Source: Thermoplasmata archaeon (GTDB lineage Archaea > Thermoplasmatota > Thermoplasmata > RBG-16-68-12 > JAFNFQ01). From it: a stretch of DNA of 64,000 bases. Positions within the stretch are counted from its first letter, which is position 1. The number at the start of each line of letters is the position of its first letter. Where the stretch lies: NCBI GenBank assembly GCA_041489255.1, contig JBGPQV010000001.1, positions 110,606-174,605 of the forward strand, in the 5' to 3' direction. Below the pieces are notes generated by a model. It had not been told where the DNA came from. It ran no database searches and saw nothing but the letters and a program-made list of their open reading frames with translations. A program made the position numbers and the translations under genes. This document shows positions 18,269 to 50,935 of this stretch, in pieces.

Positions 18269-21200
18269 TCAGAGATCTATCCGCACGATCTCGACGTCCA
18301 TTCCTGGCCACAGGTACGGAGACGAGTACGGGTTGCCGTTATCATCGTCCGCGACTATGAGCGTGACGTACAGGAAATAGGGCATCTGGCTCTCGTCGAA
18401 CGTGTGGGTGGCCGTGTCGTGCGCAGTGATTGGGTCGTATTCTGGACTTCTGACGGAATTGTCTGCGAAGATAAACTTCGGCTCCTTGAAGGGCAGCAGG
18501 TTGAAATCGTCGCTGGTTGCGCTGGTGTAGAAGATGCCCGGGTGCGCGTAGATGTGCAGGTTGTACGGAGTCAAGTCGCTCCACGCCCAAGCGAAGACGA
18601 GGTCGTCACTGCCTGGGTCTGTCGCCACGGCCTCGAATGTCAGCGGGCTGCCTATTGCGAGGCGCTTGAACTCCTTGTTGCCGATTGTAGCCACACTCGG
18701 ACCGTCATTGCTGTCGAATGTGCGCCTGAGCTCCTTCATCTTGCCGCCGGGCCAAGTCGATTCGAAGATCCAAGTGGGGTTGGCCCCGTTGTCTCCTGTC
18801 GGGTCGTAGGCGATTGTGAGGGTGTACTTGGTGTTTGGCGTCATGTCTATCCTCAAGGTCGGCAAGCAACCGACGGCTGGCTTCCCAGGTTCTCTAGTGG
18901 TCGTGACCGTGGAATAGCTGCCGTCCGTGCCCATCACGGCTAGCGTAGCTTCATTGCCTTTGTTGCCAGACATCCTGAGGCACAGTTCGGCATTGGCGTA
19001 CGCTGCAGCGCTTTGGATTGTCGGATCGACGTTATTCACCGTGACTGGTATGTAGCGGTGGGACAGGGTCTGTGTATATGTCGGATCGGCAACTGGTACG
19101 TTGCCGACTGAGTCCCATGTCCAGCCCATGTCGTCGTCGATGACCGTCACATCGACCGTGTAGAGACCGTTGTCGCCCCAAACGTGCGTCACTGCCGGGA
19201 TCTCAGCAGACGGAATTCCGCCGATGACCCAGCCGATGCAGTTGCGCAGCAGTTTCGAAGCGTCAGCCCCTCCGTATGCGGCGGTGTAGGCGTTGATCGC
19301 GCATGACCTCTTGTTGCCATCCTTCTCGTTGACACCGACCGCTGCACCGCCGTCGTTCCAACTGGCTAGTCTCAGACCACCTGCCGTCGTTGGCAGGTTG
19401 CCGGAGTGGATGGTGCCAGACGTCACGGCTGTGACGCCTTTCACCACTGGGTGCGCCGGATAGTGTATCGTGCCGAGTGCAGCGTTGGCGAACGGGTAGA
19501 CCGCTTTCTCGAACGGACCGTAGTCTTGATCCATGTACCGACCGGTCAAGCTGAACAGCTCACCGTAGGTCGAGGACAAGTCGTATGTGGCCATGAAGGT
19601 CACAACGCCTCCCCCATGCGCGTCAAGATAGTCTGCCAGCCTATTGCCGACCAAGAGCTTGGCCGCTTCGAACGCCGGAGAACCAGACGATGCCCACTCG
19701 CCGCCATATAGAATGACGTCGAATTGCAGCATGTAGGCAAGGGTCGGTGCCGACAGAGCCTCGAACCAGTTGTATCCGGTCACGGAGCCGACGAGGTCCA
19801 TGCTCAGCAGCATATTGGCGATTATCGTGTATGACGCGCAGGTGTTGCCTGTCGTGCAGGCGTGGTGGATGAATAGTATGTCCTGCTTCGGCGGCGATAG
19901 CGTCCCCTTGTAGACCCATTCAGCCGGAGTGCCATCGTCGAAATCCAGCTTGTAGGCGAACCATTCGGTCTGCGCCATCAATGCTGGGTCGGAAATTTCC
20001 CACCCGCTGAAAAGGACGCTTTGAGATTCGTCCCTCACGACCGATGTCGGACCGCCGATTATGGCTGGTGGCACATTCTGAACGAGGATTGTGCCGGCGA
20101 CCTCACCCAGACCGGTATCGATGAACCTCAGGCTTCTGAGGGTGACTTTCACATCATCGATTCCCCAGTACCAATCGTTGTTGTTGTAGAACCGGAATCG
20201 CAGTTTCATGGTGCTGGTGAGCGGATAGCCCATCAGGGAGAGCTCGTAATACTTGTCTTCAGTCGCCGGGTTCAAGTGATGGAATTCTGCGAGTATGTAC
20301 GGATATGTCGCTCCGTCGTCGCTGCTGAGTTCTATGAAGCCGTCTTGCGTTCCTCCCGCGTAGTTCGCCACCCAATAATTCCTCCACCGGATAGAGGCGT
20401 TGTTGTACGAAACGCCGGTCATGGAGAATGTCGGGCTGTATAGGTAGCTCCATGTCCCGTAGGTCGAATAGGAGTAGCTGTTGTATGCACCAAGGCTGGT
20501 CCAGACTGTGATGGTCTGGCACCTCCAGCCCGTGGTCCCAGTTGGCGCCTTCGTCCAACCTCCCGGGAATTGAGTGATTGTGCATGTCCCTTTCTGGAAG
20601 TCCTGGAAGAGTGCGTCGGTGGATATGCCCTCAGAACCTTGATAGTCGTCGTCCTTCACTTGCACTTTGACAGACATGTAGTCCTGAGGCGAGGTCGTCA
20701 TCGGGTCGTCATCCTTGAAGGTCAGCTGGTTCCAGGGTAGCGATATCGGCATCGACAATGGCACCGGGTCAGGCTGCCTGGAGACCCACCTGATGGCGTT
20801 CGCGACCATCCTGATGCAATCGCCATTGCACGTGCCATCTGCAGAGGTCCATGACCTCCATGGCATGGCGACCGCGCGCGCTCCATTTGACACCTTCGGG
20901 TTCTCTTTGGCGGCGACCATCACGGCTCCGTCGGTCCAGTCGGCGATCCTCGTCGCTCCAGGGTTCGTGTTGAACATCTGCGAGTGCGGGTACGCCGAGA
21001 CTGAGGTGACGCCGTCCAATATCGGGTGGCCGGGTACGTAGATCGTGCCTATGTTCTTGTAAAGCCACTGGCTTACACCGTATGGCACTGGGCTGTACTG
21101 ATCGGTGAAGTATCTTCCAAGAATCTGCCATGCCCCCGGATTGTACGGGCCTCTGCCGTTCACTATGACTCCGCCGGACCCTTGGCTGCCTTTGGCATCC

Positions 21201-22744
21201 ATGTAGTCAGCTAGCAGGTCGCCTGTTCCGGCAGGTGTCGTGCCGCTGTATGTGTCGACCCAGACGACGTCGTACGCCATCAGCTGGGACAGAGTCATTG
21301 GCGTCGTCCCGAAGTTGTAGGAGTCAACCTTGATGCAGAAAGCACCGCACTGGGCTATGATGCCAGCCCTGAATGCGTTGATATAGGTGTCCACGCCCGT
21401 GGCGGTGTGGTACAGGAGTACATTGGCTCCGCCAGAGTACTTCTTGACCGGATTCCATGCAGTGTAGGTTCCGTCGGGCAGTTGCCAGCGGTACTGCCAT
21501 GTGTCGTCCGAGCCCGGATCGTCAAACGTCGCAGACACCATCACAGGGCTGCCCTCGAGTCCCGGAGTCGGGTTCTGAACGATGTCATAAGTCTGCGGCG
21601 AGACATTGTTTACATCGACGAACGCGATGTCGCCGTAGGTCAACTCCTTCATTGTCGTTTGCCGCCACTCGAAGTCGATCATGGGCTCGTAAGTTGTCCC
21701 GCTGTTGTAGAGCACATTGGGGAATCTCTGAGGCGTCCCCGTAGCGTAGTACATCCCCATGAAGGAGACCTTCTCGAAAGAAACCGCCAAGTTATTGTAC
21801 GCATTCCAATAGCCGGTCGCACTCGCATCACTGTTCTTGTGACCCGATACCATGTATTCCTTGCCGCCAATCAAAGAAACGGCGGCAGGCAGGGTGCACC
21901 AGTACCAAGCGTATTGAGTCGGCATCGACGAGGGCGTGCATGTGCCGAGCTGTGTCTGCGTGGCATAATCCCAGATTCTTAGAGACCAAGGCGTCGTGAA
22001 TGCATAGATGTAATAGAAGAAGCCGAGTCTGGTGGCGTCCATGTCCTGCTTTGCCAAGAACCTCCAGCCTATGTTCCCATATGCGAATCCGTAGGTGTAG
22101 GCCCCAGATTCGCCCCATGTGTTGCCATAGATGGTGACGGGTATTTTCGATATCCCGTCCCAGCCCTCGGCCCGGACGTTCGCGTAGTAGTTGTCGTTGT
22201 AAGTTTTGTCATAAGTCATCTGGGTCAACCAAGGCGTGTCCGCGATTCCATCATTGTTCCAGTCCCAGCGGAAGAAAATCAGGGTCGGGTCATCGGTCGT
22301 GATCTCGAAATGGATCGTGCAACTGCCCTCGAAGCATGTCGGCCCACCATAGGGACCGCCAGCATCGATGCCTGGACTGCGCGTCCCCGTGTCATCGGTC
22401 TGCACGACTCGCGCCTTTATGCCGTTGCCGATATTTCCCGTGGATCCTTGTCCGTTTTGCCCTTCCACCAGAACATCGCGACCTTCGGCTTCCTGTTCAT
22501 CGTACGGCTGATTGTCAGTAGTTGCCAATGGCAGGTTGTCTTCCTGCACTGCATTCGTGTCCAGAACCCCGAGGGTTGAAACCGTGGTTGTCTGATCGGT
22601 TCTTGTTCCCGAGTCTCCTGCGGGGCCGCTCACTGCTGGCGTGGCATCCTTGTTTGAAACAAAGGATGTGACGCTCAGCCCCGAGCTGACCATCGCTATG
22701 ACAATCAGCACGGAAAACGCCAATCGCACCCTCGCTGTTCTCAT
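18269..22744 (-). CDS. giant secreted surface protein (~1491 aa) with duplicated ~190-aa module and C-terminal PKD-like domain
   Basis: ATG at 22744 is preceded by GGGGAGGGAG. Signal/anchor LAFSVLIVIAMVSSGLSV. Two homologous internal modules. C-terminal DPGSDDLVFAWAWSD PKD-like motif. Confidence 0.75.
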   Translation of the reverse strand: MRTARVRLAFSVLIVIAMVSSGLSVTSFVSNKDATPAVSGPAGDSGTRTDQTTTVSTLGVLDTNAVQEDNLPLATTDNQPYDEQEAEGRDVLVEGQNGQGSTGNIGNGIKARVVQTDDTGTRSPGIDAGGPYGGPTCFEGSCTIHFEITTDDPTLIFFRWDWNNDGIADTPWLTQMTYDKTYNDNYYANVRAEGWDGISKIPVTIYGNTWGESGAYTYGFAYGNIGWRFLAKQDMDATRLGFFYYIYAFTTPWSLRIWDYATQTQLGTCTPSSMPTQYAWYWCTLPAAVSLIGGKEYMVSGHKNSDASATGYWNAYNNLAVSFEKVSFMGMYYATGTPQRFPNVLYNSGTTYEPMIDFEWRQTTMKELTYGDIAFVDVNNVSPQTYDIVQNPTPGLEGSPVMVSATFDDPGSDDTWQYRWQLPDGTYTAWNPVKKYSGGANVLLYHTATGVDTYINAFRAGIIAQCGAFCIKVDSYNFGTTPMTLSQLMAYDVVWVDTYSGTTPAGTGDLLADYMDAKGSQGSGGVIVNGRGPYNPGAWQILGRYFTDQYSPVPYGVSQWLYKNIGTIYVPGHPILDGVTSVSAYPHSQMFNTNPGATRIADWTDGAVMVAAKENPKVSNGARAVAMPWRSWTSADGTCNGDCIRMVANAIRWVSRQPDPVPLSMPISLPWNQLTFKDDDPMTTSPQDYMSVKVQVKDDDYQGSEGISTDALFQDFQKGTCTITQFPGGWTKAPTGTTGWRCQTITVWTSLGAYNSYSYSTYGTWSYLYSPTFSMTGVSYNNASIRWRNYWVANYAGGTQDGFIELSSDDGATYPYILAEFHHLNPATEDKYYELSLMGYPLTSTMKLRFRFYNNNDWYWGIDDVKVTLRSLRFIDTGLGEVAGTILVQNVPPAIIGGPTSVVRDESQSVLFSGWEISDPALMAQTEWFAYKLDFDDGTPAEWVYKGTLSPPKQDILFIHHACTTGNTCASYTIIANMLLSMDLVGSVTGYNWFEALSAPTLAYMLQFDVILYGGEWASSGSPAFEAAKLLVGNRLADYLDAHGGGVVTFMATYDLSSTYGELFSLTGRYMDQDYGPFEKAVYPFANAALGTIHYPAHPVVKGVTAVTSGTIHSGNLPTTAGGLRLASWNDGGAAVGVNEKDGNKRSCAINAYTAAYGGADASKLLRNCIGWVIGGIPSAEIPAVTHVWGDNGLYTVDVTVIDDDMGWTWDSVGNVPVADPTYTQTLSHRYIPVTVNNVDPTIQSAAAYANAELCLRMSGNKGNEATLAVMGTDGSYSTVTTTREPGKPAVGCLPTLRIDMTPNTKYTLTIAYDPTGDNGANPTWIFESTWPGGKMKELRRTFDSNDGPSVATIGNKEFKRLAIGSPLTFEAVATDPGSDDLVFAWAWSDLTPYNLHIYAHPGIFYTSATSDDFNLLPFKEPKFIFADNSVRSPEYDPITAHDTATHTFDESQMPYFLYVTLIVADDDNGNPYSSPYLWPGMDVEIVRIDL

Positions 22745-23126
22745 TTCATTCTCCCTCCCCGAATCCGGTGGTTGAGAGGTCCGAAGAGAGCCAGAAAACG
22801 ATAGCATGCGCCCTCCCTTCGAAGCGCGAAGAGCACGAACCCATGCACTCTGACCACCCCATTCCCCTTCCTCCGTACTTGGAGGATTCAGAGGACCGTC
22901 ACATCAAGAGAGCAACGCGGACGGTGACTTCCAAGTTCCGCTTCTCCACCCCCTGCGTTTCCCCTTCTGCGATAGACCCTCATCCAGCAATATTGGACGC
23001 TGGATACTTAATGCTGTCGCAGCCAGACAGTCAAAAACCGGTCGCCTTGGAAAACTCGGGCCCACTTCCGCCATCGGGATTTCGGATCGTGTGAACGCTT
23101 AAAGAGGGAGCCGCCATGCGCCGCTC

Positions 23127-24395: not shown

Positions 24396-24496
24396 GCCGT
24401 CGTAGCTCAGTCTGGTAGAGCCCCCGGCTGTTAGTCCGTCTCGTCGGAGATGGAGCAGGCACCGGGTGGTCTGCGGTTCGAATCCGCACGACGGCG
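24396..24496 (+). tRNA. tRNA-Asn(GTT) with 27-nt intron at canonical 37/38 position
   Basis: Acceptor GCCGTCG/CGACGGC; D-arm GCTC-AGTCTGGTA-GAGC; anticodon stem CCCGG/CCGGG; loop CTGTTA|intron|A; T-arm TGCGG-TTCGAAT-CCGCA; discriminator G. Intron ~24434-24460. Confidence 0.75.
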
Positions 24497-26043: not shown

Positions 26044-26188
26044 CGAGAGTCCGATATGACAGCTCGAATTGAGTCTTTAAATCTGGCGTGGTTACTTCCA
26101 CGAACCGGAACGTTCGACCGCTTTAGGCTTAAATAGCGGTATCCTGTTGGCATCTTCGCGGACCGGTCTCGCGCCTGATCCGCAGGAT

Positions 26189-26291
26189 GGGCCCGTAGCT
26201 TAGTCCGGTGGAGCGTCCGGCTCATAACCGGATGGTCGTCGGTTCAAACACCCGTCCGTCATGGGGCGGGTTGGAAATCCGACCGGGCCCA
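26189..26291 (+). tRNA. tRNA-Met(CAT) (elongator or Ile2-type) with ~29-nt non-canonical intron inside the T-loop
   Basis: Acceptor GGGCCCG/CGGGCCC; D-arm GCTT-AGTCCGGTG-GAGC; anticodon stem TCCGG/CCGGA; loop CTCATAA. T-stem GTCGG...CCGAC is separated by 36 nt (TTCAAA-CACCCGTCCGTCATGGGGCGGGTTGGAAA-T) instead of 7. TTAAATA box at ~26129. Confidence 0.6.
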
Positions 26292-26373
26292 TCGAATCTC
26301 CCCTGATCGGCCAGTGCGCCTTCATAGCCCCGCCAACAGCCTTTTTAGCGTCCCTTGACGTGTCCATTGCGCA

Positions 26374-29115
26374 TTGAAAGACCTGGGTTTGGACAAGAGC
26401 ATTGTCAGGGCTCTCGGCAAGCTCGGCATCAGCGAGTTCACCGAACCCCAGCTCCGCGCGATACCCCTAATCATGCAAGGCAAGAACGTTCTTCTCGTTG
26501 CCCCGACGGGGCTCGGCAAGACCGAGGCCGCGATTCTCCCACTGCTCCACAAGCTCATCACGGAGAAGCCCAAGCCCATCAGCCTACTCTACATCACGCC
26601 CCTGAGATCGCTGAACAGGGACATGCTGCGTCGCATGACCTTCTTCGCCGAGGAATTGCATATACGCGTGGCGGTGAGGCACGGCGACACCTCGCCGCAG
26701 GAGAGAGCCGCCCTCTCCCGCAATCCTCCCGACATCCTCATTACAACGCCGGAAACGTTCCAGATACTATTCACTGGCACGAAGTTGAGGCAGCAGCTGC
26801 GGCAGGTGAGATGGGTCATCGTGGACGAGGTTCACGAGCTTGCCGACGACGAACGGGGAGGACAGCTCGCGATAGGGTTGGAGAGGCTCGCCGCTCTCGC
26901 GGGGAGACGTTTCCAGAGGATAGGGCTGTCTGCGACAGTCGGGACGCCGCAGGAAGCGGCCAGGTTCCTGGCGGGCACGAAAGACGGAATCGAAGTCGTG
27001 CAAGTGGCCGTCGTGAAGGACCTCGCGATAAATGTCGAGTACCCCGAGGTCACTCCGGCTGACGGGAAGCTCACCGACCAGATCCATGTGCAGCCGGGAA
27101 TGGCGGCCGCCATGAGACGATGCATGGAGCTCGTGGACCGCCACAGATCCACTCTATTCTTCGTGAATACCAGGGACACCGCGGAATTCCTCTCTTCCCG
27201 GATGCGGGCAGCCTTTCCAGAGTCGAGCATCGGCGTCCACCACGGCTCTCTCGCCCGCGACGTCAGGATACAGATGGAAGACGAGTTCAAGTCTGAGAAA
27301 CTCAAGACCCTTATCTGCACCTCTTCCCTGGAACTTGGAATTGACGTCGGCAGCGCGGACTTCACCCTTCAGTTCAACTCGCCTCGCCAAGTGACCCGAC
27401 TCGTACAGCGCGTGGGAAGATCGGGGCATGGGGTCGGCAAGACGTCAAAGGGCACGGTCATCGCGACATCGGAGGACGACATCGCGGAGGCAATGGTCAT
27501 TGCAAGGAAGGCGCTCTCCGGGGAACTCGAGCCTCTCAGAGTGAGGCGCAACAACATGAGCGTCCTCGCGAACCAGCTCGTCTCGATGACGATGACTCAG
27601 CCGTCGATGACCCTCGATGAGGCGTTCGAGCTCGTAAGAGGCGCATATCAGTACAGGGACCTCAAGAGAGTCGACTTCGAAGCATTGGCCAACCAGCTGG
27701 CTGAACTGAGAGTCTTGTGGTGCAGGGACGGCAGGATAGGGCGCTCTCGGGGATCGATGACCTACTTCTACGAGAACATCTCGATGATCCCTGACGTGAG
27801 GACGTACCGCGTCACCGACATCCCCTCACGGAACGAGATAGGGACGCTCGATGAGTGGTTCGTCGCGGAGTATGCGAAGGAGGGCAGCACATTCGTCATG
27901 AAAGGGTTGGCATGGCGGTTCGTCGAGTTCAAGGAAGACAGGATACTGGTCGAGCCCGTGAAGGACATCGGGGAGGTGCCCAGCTGGATCGGCGAGGAAA
28001 TCCCCGTGCCCCTCGACGTCGCGATGGAGGTGGGGAGGCTCAGGCGGGAGAGACATCTAGCGGACTACCCCGTGAACGAGGATGGCGGGAGAACCCTGGC
28101 CAAGCACCTCGATGAACAGGGAGAGCTCCCGACCCCCTCGGACAGACTCGTGACAATAGAGTCCTTGAAAGACATGATCGTCGTCAACGCGTGCTTCGGC
28201 ACGAAGGTGAACGAGACTCTAGCCCAGCTGTTCACGGCTTTGTTGTCGGCGAGATTCGGACAGAGCGTCGGCGTCCGAACGGACCCGTATCGCATAATCC
28301 TGCAAGTCCCGAGGGCGGTGCAGCCCGACCTGATCAAGACGATACTGATGCCTGATGACCCGTCCGCCATCGAGCCCCTGCTGCGCGTGGCGCTGAGGAA
28401 CTCGCCCTATCTGCGCTGGTCGTTCGTCCATGTAGCCAAGAAGTTCGGCGCCCTCAGGAGGGACGTTGAATGGGAGGCGGTGAACATCCAGAGGCTGTTG
28501 AAGGTCTTTGACCGCACTCCGCTACTCGAGGAAGTCTTCGCGAAGGTATTCTGGGAGAGGCTCGACATCGAGGCAACTGCGGTGGTGCTCGAGAGAATCA
28601 AGAAGGGAGACATACGAATCGAGTTCTCCAAGCTATCTCCCATAGGCAAGGCCGGTCTCGGTCCTTATATGATGCTCATTGCCCCTGCCAAGGCAGATCA
28701 TGCGACGCTCATGGCGCTGAAGCATAGGCTCGAAGAGTCGTTCATGGTGATGGTCTGTCTGAAATGCAAAAGCAGCTGGAGGACGCGGGTGGGAGGCTTG
28801 AAGGAGAAAGTGCGCTGCCCTCAATGCGATGGCATGATGATTGCGGCTCTCAGGCCATATGAGAGGGAACTTGCCGAGCGCGTCCGCAGGCGGGAGGGGA
28901 AGCTCTCCGAGGGAGAATACAGGAAGCTTCGAACGATAGCCAGTCTGGTCGCGGCCAATGGGAGAAAGGCGGTAATCGCGCTTGCCGCGAGGGGGGTAGG
29001 TCCAGAAACCGCCGCGAGAATATTGAGGGGGCTCCATGACACCGAGGAGGACTTCCTCAGGAGCGTGTTGGCGGCCGAGGTCAATTACGCGAGGACGAAG
29101 CGCTTTTGGGACTAG
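26374..29115 (+). CDS. lhr: Lhr-type large ATP-dependent helicase (DEAD/DEAH box) with C-terminal zinc ribbon
   Basis: Motif I APTGLGKT, DEVH box, and motif VI. C-terminal CLKCKS...CPQCDG. 913 aa. TTG start. Confidence 0.85.
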   Translation: MKDLGLDKSIVRALGKLGISEFTEPQLRAIPLIMQGKNVLLVAPTGLGKTEAAILPLLHKLITEKPKPISLLYITPLRSLNRDMLRRMTFFAEELHIRVAVRHGDTSPQERAALSRNPPDILITTPETFQILFTGTKLRQQLRQVRWVIVDEVHELADDERGGQLAIGLERLAALAGRRFQRIGLSATVGTPQEAARFLAGTKDGIEVVQVAVVKDLAINVEYPEVTPADGKLTDQIHVQPGMAAAMRRCMELVDRHRSTLFFVNTRDTAEFLSSRMRAAFPESSIGVHHGSLARDVRIQMEDEFKSEKLKTLICTSSLELGIDVGSADFTLQFNSPRQVTRLVQRVGRSGHGVGKTSKGTVIATSEDDIAEAMVIARKALSGELEPLRVRRNNMSVLANQLVSMTMTQPSMTLDEAFELVRGAYQYRDLKRVDFEALANQLAELRVLWCRDGRIGRSRGSMTYFYENISMIPDVRTYRVTDIPSRNEIGTLDEWFVAEYAKEGSTFVMKGLAWRFVEFKEDRILVEPVKDIGEVPSWIGEEIPVPLDVAMEVGRLRRERHLADYPVNEDGGRTLAKHLDEQGELPTPSDRLVTIESLKDMIVVNACFGTKVNETLAQLFTALLSARFGQSVGVRTDPYRIILQVPRAVQPDLIKTILMPDDPSAIEPLLRVALRNSPYLRWSFVHVAKKFGALRRDVEWEAVNIQRLLKVFDRTPLLEEVFAKVFWERLDIEATAVVLERIKKGDIRIEFSKLSPIGKAGLGPYMMLIAPAKADHATLMALKHRLEESFMVMVCLKCKSSWRTRVGGLKEKVRCPQCDGMMIAALRPYERELAERVRRREGKLSEGEYRKLRTIASLVAANGRKAVIALAARGVGPETAARILRGLHDTEEDFLRSVLAAEVNYARTKRFWD

Positions 29116-40466: not shown

Positions 40467-40589
40467 TAGGCGGTAGCGGTTAATGAGTTTTTAGGATTCC
40501 CGAGATGGTTGGCGTGGGTACCGCCACGGGAATAGGATTGATACTAAGCCACCGCAACCCTTTAACGATTGAGCACCATGGTGCCCGCC

Positions 40590-40664
40590 GGACCCGTGGC
40601 CTAGACAGGATATGGCACCGGCTTTCTAAGCCGGCGATCCCGGGTTCGAATCCCGGCGGGTCCG
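40590..40664 (+). tRNA. tRNA-Arg(TCT), copy 1, full length
   Basis: Acceptor GGACCCG/CGGGTCC; anticodon stem CCGGC/GCCGG; loop TTTCTAA; T-arm CCGGG-TTCGAAT-CCCGG; discriminator G. Confidence 0.8.
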
Positions 40665-40708
40665 TCTCAGACCGTATCGACCGCCCTGTTGGCTCTCGGA
40701 TAATCAGA

Positions 40709-41146
40709 CTATTGAGAACGATTATGCTTCGTTGGTCTCGGCGGAGTCTTGCCGCGCAGGGTGCAGATGCTGAACTCGGCGTCCAAGGCAACTCTCCCAC
40801 TCAGCTTCTTGACCTCTTCGAGGGCGGCGAGGGCACGTTGTTCGTCGAACGGATATACATCATTGGCTGCCCACACCCTCACATATGGATTGTCGTGGTC
40901 TAGGAGCGAGTTCAAGGCTTGCTTGCCCTCATCTCCAGCTCTCTTCAGTCCGCGTGCCGCCGCAATGACGCGCCTAGCGTATCGATTCACCGTCAGTGGA
41001 TGTGAGTGAGCGTCACACGCGGCTCCGTACTTGATTGCGGCATCGACATAACGAGCCTTCAGTCGGGCGACGGCCCGAGATTCGTCTTGAATGCTCATGG
41101 CCGCCACTCGCCCCCTGAGATCATCTCGAGTACCTGCCAACCTCAA
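40709..41146 (-). CDS. small HEAT-like repeat protein, paralog A
   Basis: 145 aa. LL.H.NP.VR..AA HEAT-type motif. ~35% identical to paralog B. Confidence 0.5.
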   Translation of the reverse strand: MRLAGTRDDLRGRVAAMSIQDESRAVARLKARYVDAAIKYGAACDAHSHPLTVNRYARRVIAAARGLKRAGDEGKQALNSLLDHDNPYVRVWAANDVYPFDEQRALAALEEVKKLSGRVALDAEFSICTLRGKTPPRPTKHNRSQ

Positions 41147-41184
41147 CCCGAGTACCCATCATAAGATTTCCCGATGGTTTACGC

Positions 41185-41249
41185 CCTAGACAGGATATGG
41201 CACCGGCTTTCTAAGCCGGCGATCCCGGGTTCGAATCCCGGCGGGTCCG
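41185..41249 (+). pseudogene. 5'-truncated copy of tRNA-Arg(TCT) (positions ~12-73)
   Basis: 100% identical to copies 1 and 3 from CCTAGACAGG through the 3' end plus TCTCAG. Lacks the 5' acceptor strand. Confidence 0.7.
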
Positions 41250-41424
41250 TCTCAGTCCATATAAACCGGCGTCATTCGAGCGGGATTGAGCGAACACGAC
41301 TGATGCGCTTCCAGCCTCTGACCCTGAAAAATCCCCTTCCCCACTTCCAAGGGAGCAGCCCTCGATACTTCGCCTTCAGGCGAGAAGGATTCGACGTGGA
41401 CTGGGGTCTCTTTGATCCCCACTC

Positions 41425-41805
41425 TCAGGGGTGGAGCCGCCCCGCCCGCCACTCCCGCAAGACCATCTTTGCATTGAAGCCAACAATGCTTTTCTCCCTC
41501 GTCAAGGCCTCAATCATTTTCGTTGCTTCCGCTTCGTGATACTTCAGGTATATGCTCGCTGCGACCAAACGTACCCAAGGATTCGAATGCTCTAGTAGCG
41601 CATGAATCGCGTGCCGTCCGGCTTCTCCTTTCTTCTCCAAGCGCTTCCTGAGACTATCATAACGCTTGTACTGCTTGTTCGTCGTCTTGTAGTCGGCCGC
41701 ATCGGCCGCAGCTCCATGCTTGGTGACTGCGTCCACGAACTCTTCGACCAAACTCGAGATGGATTCCGGATTGCGCAGAATGCGACTCTTCACCCGCGGC
41801 GGCAT
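41425..41805 (-). CDS. small HEAT-like repeat protein, paralog B
   Basis: 126 aa. Homologous to 40709..41146 (FVDAV.KHGAA.DA...LLEHSNPWVRLVAAS). Confidence 0.5.
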   Translation of the reverse strand: MPPRVKSRILRNPESISSLVEEFVDAVTKHGAAADAADYKTTNKQYKRYDSLRKRLEKKGEAGRHAIHALLEHSNPWVRLVAASIYLKYHEAEATKMIEALTREKSIVGFNAKMVLREWRAGRLHP

Positions 41806-41900
41806 TGGCGTTGGCGGGATATTAAGGTTGTATGGAACCGGGGGGAAAAGAAACTCCCGCCACCGCCACGGTTCGACGAGTGAATACCATAACGCCCCCC

Positions 41901-41975
41901 GGACCCGTGGCCTAGACAGGATATGGCACCGGCTTTCTAAGCCGGCGATCCCGGGTTCGAATCCCGGCGGGTCCG
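41901..41975 (+). tRNA. tRNA-Arg(TCT), copy 3, full length, identical to copy 1
   Basis: Same 75-nt sequence as 40590..40664. Confidence 0.8.
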
Positions 41976-42134
41976 TCTATTCCCGAAGAAGGATAAAACT
42001 AATCAACCGTTTAGGCCAAAGTGGTCGTTCGACCTCTTTTCCTTTGGTTCCTGTCCCCCCAAGCTCCTGCCTGGAAACGGGCGGGGACACCTTTCCTCTT
42101 TTATACATTGGATTTATTGCCGCAATCGATTCAT

Positions 42135-46394: not shown

Positions 46395-46568
46395 GGGGAC
46401 GTAGGCTAACCTGGTAGACTGGCGGGCTCCAGTTATGGACGTGAACGGCAACGGGTTTGCTGACTCCGTGATGACTGACTGGAGCTGTGACCCTGATTCC
46501 GTGTCAGGTGGGGTCGCACCCCACCTGGTGGAAACCCGCTGACCTGGGTTCAAATCCCAGCGTCCCCA
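46395..46568 (+). tRNA. tRNA-Trp(CCA) with ~101-nt intron carrying box C/D-like motifs
   Basis: Acceptor GGGGACG/CGTCCCC; anticodon stem GCGGG/CCCGC; loop CTCCAG|intron|A; T-arm CTGGG-TTCAAAT-CCCAG; discriminator A. Intron ~46433-46533 contains GTGATGA (box C-like) and CTGA boxes. The D-stem is imperfect. Confidence 0.65.
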
Positions 46569-46681
46569 CTCAAATTCTCCAATAGCGGGACTCGAATCCA
46601 TTCTTTCCCATTCCGACATCTTGCGTCGATACTTTAAAGACACCGACTCTGATGTGTGTAAAAATAGGGGATGACAGATTT

Positions 46682-49600
46682 ATGTCGAAGGATTCGCACA
46701 TTCGGGCTCGCTTGATGACTGTCGTTGTCGCGTCTGCGATGGTGCTCAGCCTATTGCTCGTCTCGAGCGGTAAGACTGGAGCGCACACGGGAGATTGGAT
46801 TGATTCGGCCTGGACCACGTCCCCGCCGACGATCGATGGGTCCATGGCTGCGGGTGAATGGTCCGACGCCGCTTCAGCTGACCTGGGGGCCATCCCGGGG
46901 AACGCGTTCCTGGCATATCTCCTGGTCAAGAACGACGCGAACTTCCTCTACATAGCCTATGATGCCGTCGGGGATGCCACGGTGGACTCGATGGATGAAG
47001 CGGCCGTGTCTTTCGACACGGGCCATGACGTCACCACAACCGTGGGAGGCGAGAGTGAGTTCTCCTGGGGTCCCGGAGCGAACAACGGGCAGGCACATCT
47101 CGTGTTCGATGGTTCTGGATGGAGCACCGAGGACAGCCCCTTCGACACGGGTCTGCCTAATCACGCGGGACTCGCCAGCGCATTCGGTTACGGGCCGAGT
47201 GACCTCAACGCGCTCGACCATAGAATCTATGAGCTCCAAATTCCGCTTGCACTGCTGGATGCAGTCCCGACTGATGTGATCGGCTTTCTGGGCGCAAGTG
47301 AGCCGTCCCCCGGAGTATGGGACGCGGGCACCGGCTACGATTGCTGGCCTGCCGCCCTGACGGGCCCTCCTTCCTTGGTGGACTACGGCGATCTAAGGAT
47401 AGGCCGGGCGCCCATGGCTGCCGACCTCGACATGAACCCACCGTCGCAGGTCGGACAAGCCCTTCCCTCATCGAGCGCCGACTACACAATCACCGTGGTG
47501 AACCGCGGGACTGCCAATGATATCTTCGAAATGCAGGTGATGTCCGTCTGGGTCACCGACCTGTTCGACTCAGGAGGCGTGAACCCCCTCGTCGATAGCG
47601 ACGGGGACTTGATCCCCGACACGGGGAGCCTCGGCCCTGGGGCGAACGTCCAGATCATCGCGCGGGTGAACACTCCGGCGTCAGGCACATGCGACGATGC
47701 TCTGATCACCGGCACGTCTTCGAACGATCCGTTGACCTCGAACACCGCCGTCGTGAGCACGTGCCTCACGGGAGCTGGCCTGAATCCGCCTCATGCAGAC
47801 TCCGGAATCGACACGGATCTGCCGGCGAATGGTCTCTACGACGAGCTGCAGATCGATGTCGGCGTCATGGTAGGCACAGACGGCTTCTATGACGTCGCAA
47901 TCGACCTCTACGATCCTTCTGACGTCTTCTTCATCACATCCGGCAGCAATTACAACTACCTCTCCACCGGTCCCCAGATCGTGTCGGTCTTCCTGCAGGG
48001 GGCAACGATCTACGATAGCGGCTTCGACGGCCAGTATGTGGCGTACATCTATCTTTACGATGATTTCGGAAACACGCTGGACATCGGGATGTATGTCACG
48101 GCATCCTATATGCACACCGATTTCGACGGACCCGATGCGCTGCTGAACCCGCCGCATTCCGATTTCGGGATGGATACCGATTCCCCGCCGAACAGCCTAT
48201 ACGATGAACTATGGATCAATGTCGGCGTCATGGTGAGCGTCGATGGCTATTACGAGGTCGATGTCGCTCTCTACGATCCTTCTGACATCTTCTACATTAC
48301 ATCCGCCGTCAACTACAGCTACCTCCCCACCGGCCCTCAAAGCGTGTCGGTCATCCTTCAGGGACTGGATATCTACGACAGCGGCTACGACGGGCAGTAC
48401 GTGGCGTACATCTACCTCTATGACGACTTCGGCAATCCCCTGGACAACGGGATATACGTCACCTCGTCCTACGCGCACACAGACTTCGACGGACCGGGTG
48501 GCTTGTTCAATCCGCCGCACAGCGATCACGGCATCGACACCGATGTCCCACCAAATGGGCTGTACGACGAGCTCGTGATAGATGTGGGCGTGACCGTCAC
48601 TGAGGCCGGGACCTACGCGATAAGCGGCCCCCTCTTCGACCAGTTCATGAATTTCATCGCATTCAACAATACGGTCGTTGATCTGGCTATCGGAAACCAA
48701 GTCGTCCCCCTCGCGTTCTCGGGGCTGCAGATCTTCCTATCTGGACTCGATGGCCCCTATACCACGTCATTAGCACTCTCCGACCTCAACGTCACCCTGG
48801 ACTCAAACACCTACACCACGGGCGTATACAGCTGCACCGATTTCGACACGCTGCCCGGCCGGTTCGAGCCGCCACACAACGACCGCGGCCTGGATCTCAC
48901 TGTGCCCGCCGACGGCCTTTACGAGTTCCTTGAACTGGCGATCATAGTGAATGTGTCGGAGGCTGCCTCCTTTGAAATCGATGTAGAACTGTACGACTCG
49001 ACCGGCATGAACTACATCCTCTCGACGAATGTGATCGAGGACCTTGACTTCGGGTTGCAGACTGTGCCGGTCAGGCTGGACGGGCTCACGATACGCAACT
49101 CTGGATTCGACGGACCCTACGAGGCGGACCTATACCTCATCAGCGATTCCATTACAATCGACGTTGACATTTACGTGACTCAGGCATATCTGCATTCAGA
49201 CTTCTCCCCAGAGGGTGCCGCATTCACCCCGCCATACTCCGACTGGACCGTTGACTATGATGTACCTCCAGACGGCAAGGCCGACCTCCTTCTCGTCGAA
49301 GTGAACATCGACGTCATGATTGACGGGCCCTATTCCGTCATGGCCATGCTGGTGGCGTCCGGTTCGATATTCATCGAATTCACTGAGGTGCGACAAACGT
49401 TGACCATCGGAGTATCACCAGTCACAATCCCGTTCGATGGCCACAAGATTGCCGATTCCGGAGCGGATGGTCCGTATATGGTCGAGATGCTGCTCTATGA
49501 TGAGTATCATCGCCTTATCGATATGGATATTTACATAACAACGGCGTACGCGTCGGATCAATTCGAACTCCCTGACTTGACTGCACCCATCTCGACCGTA

Positions 49601-50935
49601 GGGGCTATGTCTTACTGGAAGAACGGGATTCCTTTGCTGGTCCCATATGCAGCCGCCGATTCATCTCCGACGGATGGACTGGAATCGGTGACCTTGTACT
49701 ACCAGTACAGCGCGGATAACTCCTCATGGAGCTCTTGGACAGAGTACTCCTCCGCTTTCACCGGCTCTAACCCGTCCGCAGGAATCATGCCGTTTACATT
49801 CCCCGACGGAGCCGGCTACTATCGGTTCCAGATGATTTCTATCGACGCGGCAGGGAATCAGGAATCGCTCGGAGCACCTGAGGCCGAAGTCGCCTATCTC
49901 CCCTTGGCTGAAGTGCGGTTCCAGCCCGATCCGCTCCCGCTCTCTGCTGGACAGCAGAGGACCCTCACCGTCTCGATACTGAGCACGAACGGTCAACCTG
50001 CCATGCTTGAATCTTCCCAAACGGTGAACCTCGACACATGGTCCCAGTCAGGGGAGTACCGTGCAGTGAGCGGCTCGACTCCGATCACGAGTGTGACCAT
50101 CCAGGCGGGTTCTTCAAGCGCGAGCGTCGACTACTACGACGCTGCAGCCGGCACATGGACGCTCCTCGGGTACACGAGTGGCGGCATTGGCGGCATGGGC
50201 GAAGCGATTGTGATCGCAGGCTCCGTCGCGTCCATTACGGTCGAACCGGGGGCGATTGCCATCGAGGTCACTCAAGCCCAAACCTTCACGGCAATTGCCA
50301 AAGACGCCTACGGGAACAGCGTATCAAGCGCCATCATAACATGGGATGTTGGCAGCAGCCTTGGCACAGTCGACGCCACCGGCAGGTTCACTGCCGGCAC
50401 CTTGGCGCGATCGGGGACAATCACAGCACGGTCCGATAGCATCCAAGGCTCCGCTGATATAATCTTGACACCAGGACCTGCGGCCGGCATCGAGGTCACC
50501 CCGGACAGCGCGACCATCCAGTCCGGAACGGAGGTGACCATCATCGCGGAGGTCGTGGATGCCTACGGGAATGTCATCAACGCCGCATCCGTCACATGGA
50601 CAGTGTCTGGTCCCGGGACTGTCAGCCCGGGCTCTGGCGCCACCACCACGGTCACCGCCAACGGTGCGGGAGCGATTTCCGTCACTGCCACCCTTGGATC
50701 GCTCAGTGCGACTGCAACTTTCACCTCGGTCGACACTGGAGGCGGGCTCTCGAGCATGGCGATAGCCGGCATCGCGGGCAGTCTCATCGGCGGTATCCTT
50801 ATCGGCTTTGCAGTCGGCTGGATCCTCCATAAGAGACGAACCAAGCCGCAACAGCCCGCGCAGATGCAGGTTCCACCGCCTCCCCCAGTGAACTTCCCGC
50901 CCGCCCAACCTCCGCTACCGCCACAAGGAACCTAA
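46682..50935 (+). CDS. 1417-aa cell-surface protein: signal peptide, 5 x ~118-aa tandem repeats, Ig-like (Big) domains, C-terminal TM + Pro-rich tail
   Basis: ATG at 46682 after GGGGA. Repeats begin NPPH(S/A)D.G.DTD.P.N.LYDEL.I.VGV... Big_2-like ITVEPGAIAIEVTQAQTFTA. C-terminus AIAGIAGSLIGGILIGFAVGWIL-HKRRTKPQQP...PPQGT. Confidence 0.8.
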   Translation: MSKDSHIRARLMTVVVASAMVLSLLLVSSGKTGAHTGDWIDSAWTTSPPTIDGSMAAGEWSDAASADLGAIPGNAFLAYLLVKNDANFLYIAYDAVGDATVDSMDEAAVSFDTGHDVTTTVGGESEFSWGPGANNGQAHLVFDGSGWSTEDSPFDTGLPNHAGLASAFGYGPSDLNALDHRIYELQIPLALLDAVPTDVIGFLGASEPSPGVWDAGTGYDCWPAALTGPPSLVDYGDLRIGRAPMAADLDMNPPSQVGQALPSSSADYTITVVNRGTANDIFEMQVMSVWVTDLFDSGGVNPLVDSDGDLIPDTGSLGPGANVQIIARVNTPASGTCDDALITGTSSNDPLTSNTAVVSTCLTGAGLNPPHADSGIDTDLPANGLYDELQIDVGVMVGTDGFYDVAIDLYDPSDVFFITSGSNYNYLSTGPQIVSVFLQGATIYDSGFDGQYVAYIYLYDDFGNTLDIGMYVTASYMHTDFDGPDALLNPPHSDFGMDTDSPPNSLYDELWINVGVMVSVDGYYEVDVALYDPSDIFYITSAVNYSYLPTGPQSVSVILQGLDIYDSGYDGQYVAYIYLYDDFGNPLDNGIYVTSSYAHTDFDGPGGLFNPPHSDHGIDTDVPPNGLYDELVIDVGVTVTEAGTYAISGPLFDQFMNFIAFNNTVVDLAIGNQVVPLAFSGLQIFLSGLDGPYTTSLALSDLNVTLDSNTYTTGVYSCTDFDTLPGRFEPPHNDRGLDLTVPADGLYEFLELAIIVNVSEAASFEIDVELYDSTGMNYILSTNVIEDLDFGLQTVPVRLDGLTIRNSGFDGPYEADLYLISDSITIDVDIYVTQAYLHSDFSPEGAAFTPPYSDWTVDYDVPPDGKADLLLVEVNIDVMIDGPYSVMAMLVASGSIFIEFTEVRQTLTIGVSPVTIPFDGHKIADSGADGPYMVEMLLYDEYHRLIDMDIYITTAYASDQFELPDLTAPISTVGAMSYWKNGIPLLVPYAAADSSPTDGLESVTLYYQYSADNSSWSSWTEYSSAFTGSNPSAGIMPFTFPDGAGYYRFQMISIDAAGNQESLGAPEAEVAYLPLAEVRFQPDPLPLSAGQQRTLTVSILSTNGQPAMLESSQTVNLDTWSQSGEYRAVSGSTPITSVTIQAGSSSASVDYYDAAAGTWTLLGYTSGGIGGMGEAIVIAGSVASITVEPGAIAIEVTQAQTFTAIAKDAYGNSVSSAIITWDVGSSLGTVDATGRFTAGTLARSGTITARSDSIQGSADIILTPGPAAGIEVTPDSATIQSGTEVTIIAEVVDAYGNVINAASVTWTVSGPGTVSPGSGATTTVTANGAGAISVTATLGSLSATATFTSVDTGGGLSSMAIAGIAGSLIGGILIGFAVGWILHKRRTKPQQPAQMQVPPPPPVNFPPAQPPLPPQGT
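47780..49550. repeat. five tandem ~354-bp coding repeats inside the surface-protein gene
   Basis: Protein-level 118-aa periodicity. Reverse-strand shadow ORFs at 47681 and 48209 are mutually similar. Confidence 0.5.

Follow-up and report, generated by a model that had tools for sequence, protein, structure and literature searches.

Non-canonical introns of archaeal tRNA genes have been tied to splicing endonucleases of the (alpha-beta)2 and epsilon2 types, and Cluster II Euryarchaeota, including the Thermoplasmatales, are described as having the alpha'2 type only, for which a strict motif is required (PMC5829648). This strict 3-4-3 motif is a substrate of all types of the endonuclease EndA (PMC3239211, PMC5829648). 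Position 59/60 of the T-loop is a major insertion site, the motif being relaxed in the pre-tRNA-Cys and strict in the pre-tRNA-Pro (53/54 plus 59/60) of ARMAN-2 (PMC3239211), and introns at 59/60 are also found in Thermoproteales and Thaumarchaeota (PMC8450103). T-loop introns at this site are well known, and their category is already on record near the lineage considered here: tRNAscan-SE 2.0 counted 25 non-canonical versus 520 canonical introns in 144 euryarchaeal genomes, with 6 non-canonical ones in 3 genomes of Methanomassiliicoccales and 1 in 5 genomes of Thermoplasmatales (Supplementary Table S7, PMC8450103). A literature search, outside which lay Marck & Grosjean 2002 and 2003 and Sugahara 2007, found no paper describing the intron reported below in Thermoplasmata. 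As regards the tRNA itself, an archaeal anticodon CAU may belong to an initiator tRNA-Met, an elongator tRNA-Met or a tRNA-Ile2 (PMC2584109, PMC8450103). The last is exemplified by tRNA-Ile2(CAU) of H. volcanii and H. marismortui, an agmatidine-modified decoder of AUA (PMC2584109, PMC3895270).

The locus under study lies in a 64-kb stretch of DNA (the window, 64,000 nt) and reads as a tRNA(CAU) gene whose T-loop is split by a 29-base intron with a strict archaeal splicing signal. The gene occupies 26189-26291 on the forward strand as a 103-nt precursor, laid out as GGGCCCG TA GCTT AGTCCGGTG GAGC G TCCGG CTCATAA CCGGA TGGTC GTCGG (36 nt) CCGAC CGGGCCC A. The 5' exon (26189-26248, tRNA positions 1-59) is colinear with intronless orthologues and holds the acceptor 5' strand, the D-arm, the anticodon arm with its CAT anticodon at 26223-26225, the variable loop, the T-stem 5' strand GTCGG (26238-26242) and the first six T-loop residues, TTCAAA (54-59). 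It is followed by the 29-nt intron at site 59/60 (26249-26277), whose extent is supported by the minimum free energy (MFE) fold, by a 29-nt gap in the orthologues and by covariation of its inner helix. The 3' exon (26278-26291) consists of U60, the T-stem 3' strand CCGAC (26279-26283), the acceptor 3' strand CGGGCCC (26284-26290) and the discriminator A73 (26291); CCA is not encoded. The T-stem strands are 36 nt apart (26243-26278), and removal of the 29 nt CACCCGTCCGTCATGGGGCGGGTTGGAAA restores a TTCAAAT T-loop within a 74-nt cloverleaf, in which all seven acceptor pairs (26189-26195 with 26284-26290) are Watson-Crick, all five T-stem pairs form, and the predicted exon-exon junction reads ...GGTTCAAA/TCCGAC.... 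This spliced sequence is accepted by ARAGORN over its full length as tRNA(cat). The preliminary description, which had proposed a tRNA gene with a CAT anticodon and a T-loop intron of about 29 nt, is thereby confirmed in both the 36-nt spacing and the restored loop. No second copy of the intron is present in the 64-kb window.

The unconstrained MFE structure of the 103-nt precursor has an energy of -56.6 kcal/mol (z = -4.8), and none of 200 shuffled controls was equally stable. It is a strict hBHBh' motif, with two 3-nt bulges on opposite strands 4 bp apart, each flanked by a helix longer than the 2 bp required next to the bulges. The outer helix h, between exons, is the 5-bp T-stem, and the inner helix h', within the intron, is an 8-bp ACCCGUCC/GGGCGGGU helix closed by a 6-nt loop. 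Between them, the exon strand UUCA (T-loop 54-57, 26243-26246) pairs with the intron strand UGGA (26272-26275) in the central helix, which leaves the bulges AAC (26247-26249) at the 5' and AAU (26276-26278) at the 3' splice site. Read from 5' to 3', the intron is thus composed of C, the h' 5' strand ACCCGTCC (26250-26257), the loop GTCATG (26258-26263), the h' 3' strand GGGCGGGT (26264-26271), the central-helix strand TGGA and AA. None of the features of a relaxed motif (HBh', hBH or BHL, with a bulge missing, disrupted or not of 3 nt) is seen in this copy.

In the curated H. volcanii pre-tRNAs, exon positions 32-35 pair with the intron to give the 4-bp helix, and positions 36 and 37 make up the bulge together with the first base of the intron (PMC2584109). 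Moved to the T-arm, this geometry gives a helix of positions 54-57 and a bulge consisting of 58 and 59 plus the intron's first base. In the H. volcanii BHB drawings, each 3-nt bulge is cut behind its second nucleotide; this rule, combined with the strict hBHBh' geometry, places the predicted cuts at 26248/26249 and 26277/26278, that is, the intron at 59/60. The ambiguity of the junction (56-60) noted in the preliminary description is real at the level of sequence, since four registers from 56/57 to 59/60 yield an identical mature sequence; it vanishes once the motif is applied, which fixes 59/60. The label "non-canonical" given there suits the position of the intron and does not suit its motif, which is strict 3-4-3 in the MFE fold. 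Because such a motif is cleaved by all EndA types, no enzyme of relaxed specificity is required for this copy, and the earlier proposal of an endonuclease with relaxed BHB cleavage becomes unnecessary for it.

Compared with the 59/60 introns of archaea whose enzymes are of the (alpha-beta)2 or epsilon2 type, the intron shares the T-loop site, the use of the T-stem as h, a central helix made of T-loop nucleotides and intron, and the form of a short hairpin. It differs from them in its Thermoplasmata host, in residing in a tRNA(CAU) gene, and in that this copy needs no relaxed recognition. With the canonical 37/38 introns of H. volcanii pre-tRNA-Met, -Gln and -Trp (PMC2584109) it has in common an identical 3-4-3 geometry and the predicted cleavage rule; unlike them, it sits at 59/60 and pairs with the T-loop, so that formation of the T-loop rather than of the anticodon loop would depend on splicing. 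Two introns of the canonical kind, in tRNA-Asn and tRNA-Trp, are present in the window itself. It belongs to the same archaeal class and the same feature category as the introns counted in Supplementary Table S7, a table that gives neither positions nor isotypes.

The tRNA gene adjoins a leaderless gene for an Lhr-type helicase (26374-29115, forward strand; DEAD, Helicase_C, WH_Lhr and DEAD_assoc domains), which offers a handle on the host. The closest genomic relative of this helicase, at 98% identity, comes from a MAG labelled 'Methanobacteriota archaeon', and other relatives come from Thermoplasmata and Methanomassiliicoccales MAGs at 46-63% identity; the G+C content of the window is 56-61%. 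By these relationships, the host is an uncultured Thermoplasmata archaeon near Methanomassiliicoccales and outside Thermoproteota. At the same place upstream of the helicase gene, the tRNA(cat) gene is uninterrupted and 74 nt long in three related loci, L002 (a Methanomassiliicoccales MAG), L007 and L008, where it scores 64-67 bits with the Rfam tRNA model. In L002, the one Methanomassiliicoccales MAG set beside the Table S7 counts, this gene is thus intronless. When aligned with these orthologues, the window exons are colinear and interrupted by a single T-loop gap of exactly 29 nt; the only differences are an anticodon-stem pair with a compensated change (C-G versus U-A), one T-stem pair (U-A in place of U.G, or the reverse) and bases of the D-loop. 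No single argument for removal of the 29 nt on the way to a functional RNA weighs more, in our view, than these intronless orthologues. No CAU tRNA was present within the flanks examined of L003-L006 and L009-L013. The same comparison bears on taxonomy: a link to Thermoproteota-type lineages had been drawn from the intron, which had been considered informative for lineage placement, and neither suggestion withstands the helicase relatives, which place the host in Thermoplasmata, or the absence of the intron from the three orthologues. A T-loop intron is therefore an unreliable marker of Thermoproteota affiliation.

An exon-anchored scan of metagenome contigs, limited by design to copies in which 23-50 nt are inserted after GGTTC and hence silent on the frequency of intronless alleles, retrieved at least 120 contigs with an intron at the same T-loop site. 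The matches listed comprise 47 distinct inserts and represent 51 distinct pre-tRNAs; their introns measure 20-35 nt, and each of the 51 variants can be parsed into T-stem / UUCA / AAN / hairpin / 4 nt / NNU / T-stem. Eighty-one loci among these matches also hold the helicase gene; since their helicases are 55-99.8% identical to that of the window, the intron spans a broad clade. An alignment of 50 distinct pre-tRNAs, related sequences that were compared with slid partners and with 500 shuffles, places 95.5% of cells in pairs of the cloverleaf and BHB structure, versus 27-59% in the slid controls. Six of the seven h' pairs are changed on both sides, and compensatory cells number 65 versus 18.2 +/- 4.8 in the shuffles, not one of the 500 reaching 65. 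Alignment pairs 56:94, 57:93 and 58:92 are paired in every sequence, and 59:91 is A-U in the window's family. Across this set, the exons are nearly invariant and the introns diverge.

At least three intron families can be recognised. In the window's family (ACCCGUCC...UGGA), the 4-bp central helix is perfect and the accompanying helicases are roughly 67-99.8% identical to that of the window, or 79-99.8% where more than 100 helicase residues can be aligned; this family is the only one in which a strict BHB appears in the MFE (5 of 50 variants). The commonest family (GGUCCCG...GGAA), which includes L014 (e.g. L014:15-118:-), L037 and about 40 other distinct variants, combines U-A, U-A/G and C-G pairs with an A57.G mismatch, and its MFE is a symmetric 7x7 internal loop. 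A third family (L046:3714-3807:-, L079) has a 20-nt mini-intron at 59/60 with a GGGC/GCCC hairpin and a perfect UUCA/UGAA central helix. According to these folds, the strictness of the motif is not uniform across the clade, the commonest family being predicted to have three Watson-Crick pairs plus A.G and to lack the motif in its MFE.

In a neighbour-joining tree of the helicase N-terminus, a single protein and a tree without support values, each of the three families falls on a deep branch of its own; of the intronless loci, L002 and L007 are nested between these branches and L008 lies outside them. Such a distribution would imply an old intron that was precisely lost two or more times, or else three or more gains at the one site. 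Similarity between the families is not significant (p = 0.2-0.98), the corresponding value within the window's clade being p = 0.04, and that between the T-loop intron and the tRNA-Asn intron of the same genome is not significant either (p = 0.09). Within the window's clade, the intron is barely alignable already at about 80% helicase identity, and on this ground the lack of significant similarity between families would be compatible with common descent. An origin of the intron by transposition was considered and found no support, there being no other copy in the window and no significant similarity between families; these values favour neither homology nor independent gain.

These observations lead us to favour a functional intron-containing tRNA(CAU) gene that would be spliced by EndA and RtcB and whose product is most likely tRNA-Ile2, with a probability of about 0.8. 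Annotation tools point elsewhere. On genomic sequence, ARAGORN reports an uninterrupted 73-nt gene at 26193-26265 that ignores the true 3' half, and the Rfam tRNA model matches 26194-26258 at 35.8 bits, above the gathering threshold of 29, though over model positions 6-65 only. That this uninterrupted gene (26193/4-26258/65) is the real tRNA is barely credible: its acceptor and T stems both contain mismatches and its T-loop measures 9 nt, a fold that is out of reach of the intronless orthologues, whereas the spliced model is fully paired in both stems and matches them base for base. It was rejected on these grounds. A second objection would accept the gene and dispute the intron, the 29 nt being either an inactivating hairpin insertion, as in a pseudogene or a mobile-element scar, or an expansion kept in the mature RNA. 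Splicing is indeed predicted from sequence, and families devoid of detectable mutual similarity are what independent insertions would be expected to leave. Yet the exons are essentially invariant even where the helicases are only 55-65% identical, the insert evolves fast while compensatory changes keep its exact bulge-helix-bulge geometry, the promoter-like box is conserved, and the window holds no other copy of the insert. A T-loop of 36 nt is, moreover, incompatible with the elbow formed by T-loop and D-loop. We consider retention or inactivation very improbable, if somewhat less so than the uninterrupted gene.

The isotype is the part of the favoured reading that faces the most serious competitor, an elongator tRNA-Met with the same 59/60 intron and spliced alike. 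The CAT anticodon and the ARAGORN label tRNA-Met speak for it, as does the reliance of the Ile2 assignment on the reference set of H. volcanii alone; the preliminary description had likewise called the gene a tRNA-Met. The spliced tRNA was compared by whole-sequence identity with 37 curated H. volcanii tRNAs (Additional files 1 and 2, PMC2584109), a single reference species from another class, and its best match is tRNA-Ile2(CAU) at 80.0%, followed by Lys(CUU) at 77.6% and Ile1(GAU) at 77.0%. Elongator tRNA-Met reaches 64.9% (rank 10 of 37) and initiator tRNA-Met 61.5%, so that the body is closer to tRNA-Ile than to either tRNA-Met, as judged against H. volcanii. The spliced tRNA, Ile2 and Ile1 have in common a GGGCCC-type acceptor, U8-A9 and the variable loop UGGUC; H. 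volcanii elongator tRNA-Met has instead the acceptor GCCCGGG, U8-G9 and the variable loop AGAUC, and its GCC-type acceptor is not found in the window gene. H. volcanii elongator tRNA-Met also has its intron at 37/38 (PMC2584109), where the window gene has none. The initiator is excluded by G1:C72, in place of A1:U72, which leaves the CAU anticodon on an elongator-type body. The likeness to H. volcanii Ile2(CAU) extends to A73; a difference is that the H. volcanii tRNA-Ile2 gene is without an intron. AUA makes up 82 of the 345 isoleucine codons in eight long ORFs (12.8 per 1000 codons), and its use in host ORFs means that a decoder for it is needed. The tRNA is thus probably Ile2(CAU), the AUA decoder, and the tRNA-Met label of the earlier description is not sustained; we hold an elongator tRNA-Met to be unlikely, though clearly less so than the two alternatives weighed above.

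For the favoured gene, a spliced tRNA-Ile2, the following course of events can be proposed. Transcription would probably begin downstream of a conserved TATA-like box, about 28 nt ahead of the mature 5' end. In the precursor, the T-stem would stack on the 4-bp helix formed by UUCA (54-57) and the intron's UGGA, and together with the two 3-nt bulges and the 8-bp hairpin complete the hBHBh' motif. EndA would then cut after the second nucleotide of each bulge, at the two sites predicted above, and RtcB would ligate the exons; only afterwards could the UUCAAAU T-loop form, be modified and dock on the D-loop. CCA would be added post-transcriptionally, and TiaS would convert C34 to agmatidine, thereby allowing AUA, a frequent codon in this organism, to be read.

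The upstream elements assumed in this scheme were recognised by their conservation. A promoter-like block, CCGCTTTAGGCTTAAATAGCGGT (26119-26141, forward strand), is near-invariant in 8 loci of the window's clade, its clade form being CCGCTyTAGkCTTAAATAkCGGT, with two variable positions and drifting flanks. It contains the TATA-like sequence CTTAAATA (26129-26136, forward strand), 52-60 nt upstream of the mature 5' end, a distance from which a 5' leader of about 28 nt would follow. In the major intron family, an invariant CCTTAAGTAACG box is located at -32..-21. Such boxes are consistent with archaeal TATA elements and, with the oligo-T run described next, would speak for transcription in an indirect way. 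Downstream of the gene, a conserved block GCCAACAGCCTTTTTAGC with a T5 run (26335-26352, forward strand; consensus GCCAACAGsCTTTTTAGC in 7 loci of the clade) would probably end the tRNA transcript as an oligo-T terminator, serve the Lhr helicase gene as its TATA box, or do both. Between the TATA-like box and the mature 5' end (26142-26188), the predicted leader of about 28 nt retains GCGG and C.GC elements without variation; these could pair with each other (in the window, GCGGA...TCCGC) and may represent a conserved leader hairpin.

For the enzymes expected to act on this precursor, neither an EndA nor an RtcB gene turned up in the window and 133 related loci totalling 929 kb, the EndA search combining a motif regex with phmmer runs of three PDB-verified EndA sequences against all stop-to-stop ORFs. 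An EndA profile search of a 5.8-billion-protein set returned short DPANN-type fragments only, none attributable to the clade. That the host has a splicing endonuclease is argued by two further BHB introns in the window, in tRNA-Asn and tRNA-Trp. It is tempting to go further and to suggest that this widespread environmental Thermoplasmata clade is undergoing an expansion of tRNA introns like those in Thermoproteota, Thaumarchaeota and ARMAN-2, even though only the alpha'2 enzyme is supposed to occur here. Such a view would fit three dissimilar families at a single 59/60 site on three deep branches, whether as recurrent gains at a hotspot or as an old intron precisely lost more than once, and an extra tRNA-Asn intron in the window's clade; it would also fit the majority motif (3 bp plus A.G, 7x7 loop), which may demand an endonuclease of broadened specificity. 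We offer this as a doubtful conjecture with the odds well against it. If true, it would constitute an independent case of intron/EndA co-evolution inside Cluster II Euryarchaeota.

The locus has practical consequences for annotation. ARAGORN made 8 tRNA(cat) calls over roughly 122 gene-bearing loci, and all calls on intron-bearing copies were wrong; in L048, with introns allowed, it produced a spurious 1710-nt 'tRNA-Met' from an intron-bearing copy. MAGs of this abundant environmental Thermoplasmata clade would consequently seem to be devoid of tRNA-Ile2 or to possess a defective tRNA-Met, labelling by anticodon yields tRNA-Met, and a tRNA-Ile2 that is hidden or mislabelled distorts inferences on completeness and decoding. 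Sister lineages that differ in whether an orthologous gene is interrupted, and dozens of fast-evolving variants that keep the motif, also amount to a compact natural experiment on how introns come and go and on the requirements of EndA, and document the presence, absence and turnover of an intron beyond the phyla classically rich in them.

Of the five full-length tRNA genes of the window, three are interrupted, which makes its lineage richer in introns than its relatives. The tRNA-Asn(GTT) gene (24396-24496) has a 27-nt intron at 37/38 that is restricted to the window's clade among the loci compared (L001, L065, L093, L103, L079 and 37 others); L079 has an 11-nt intron, and the gene is intronless in 37 loci of other clades and L007. 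The tRNA-Trp(CCA) gene (46395-46568) has a 101-nt intron (46433-46533) with box C/D motifs, namely a GTGATGA box C at 46468 and three CTGA boxes at 46460, 46475 and 46493, and with a sub-threshold match to the Rfam C/D family sR3 (20.2 bits). This gene is called neither by ARAGORN nor by the Rfam tRNA model, and its spliced 74-nt product is recognised. A canonical-intron tRNA-Asn and a tRNA-Trp with a box C/D intron had both been placed beside the T-loop intron; both are present, and the tRNA-Trp gene lies 20 kb away. A search of the window with Rfam at E <= 5 revealed no hidden tRNA besides Asn, CAU, Trp and two Arg genes with a fragment.

The last of these belong to a 120-nt unit with tRNA-Arg(TCT) that occurs as three direct repeats in 40548-41978. 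Two contain full genes (40590-40664 and 41901-41975; units 90% identical) and one a 5'-truncated copy (41193-41249; 67%), and the repeats may have arisen by tandem duplication or be scars left by elements that inserted in the tRNA gene. Between them lie small ORFs at 40709-41146(-), with a weak HEAT_2 match, and at 41425-41805(-), with a match to DUF2019. Elsewhere in the window, two very large ORFs, 18269-22807(-) of 1512 aa and 46652-50935(+) of 1427 aa, show weak PKD and Big_1 Ig-like matches only and presumably encode surface proteins.
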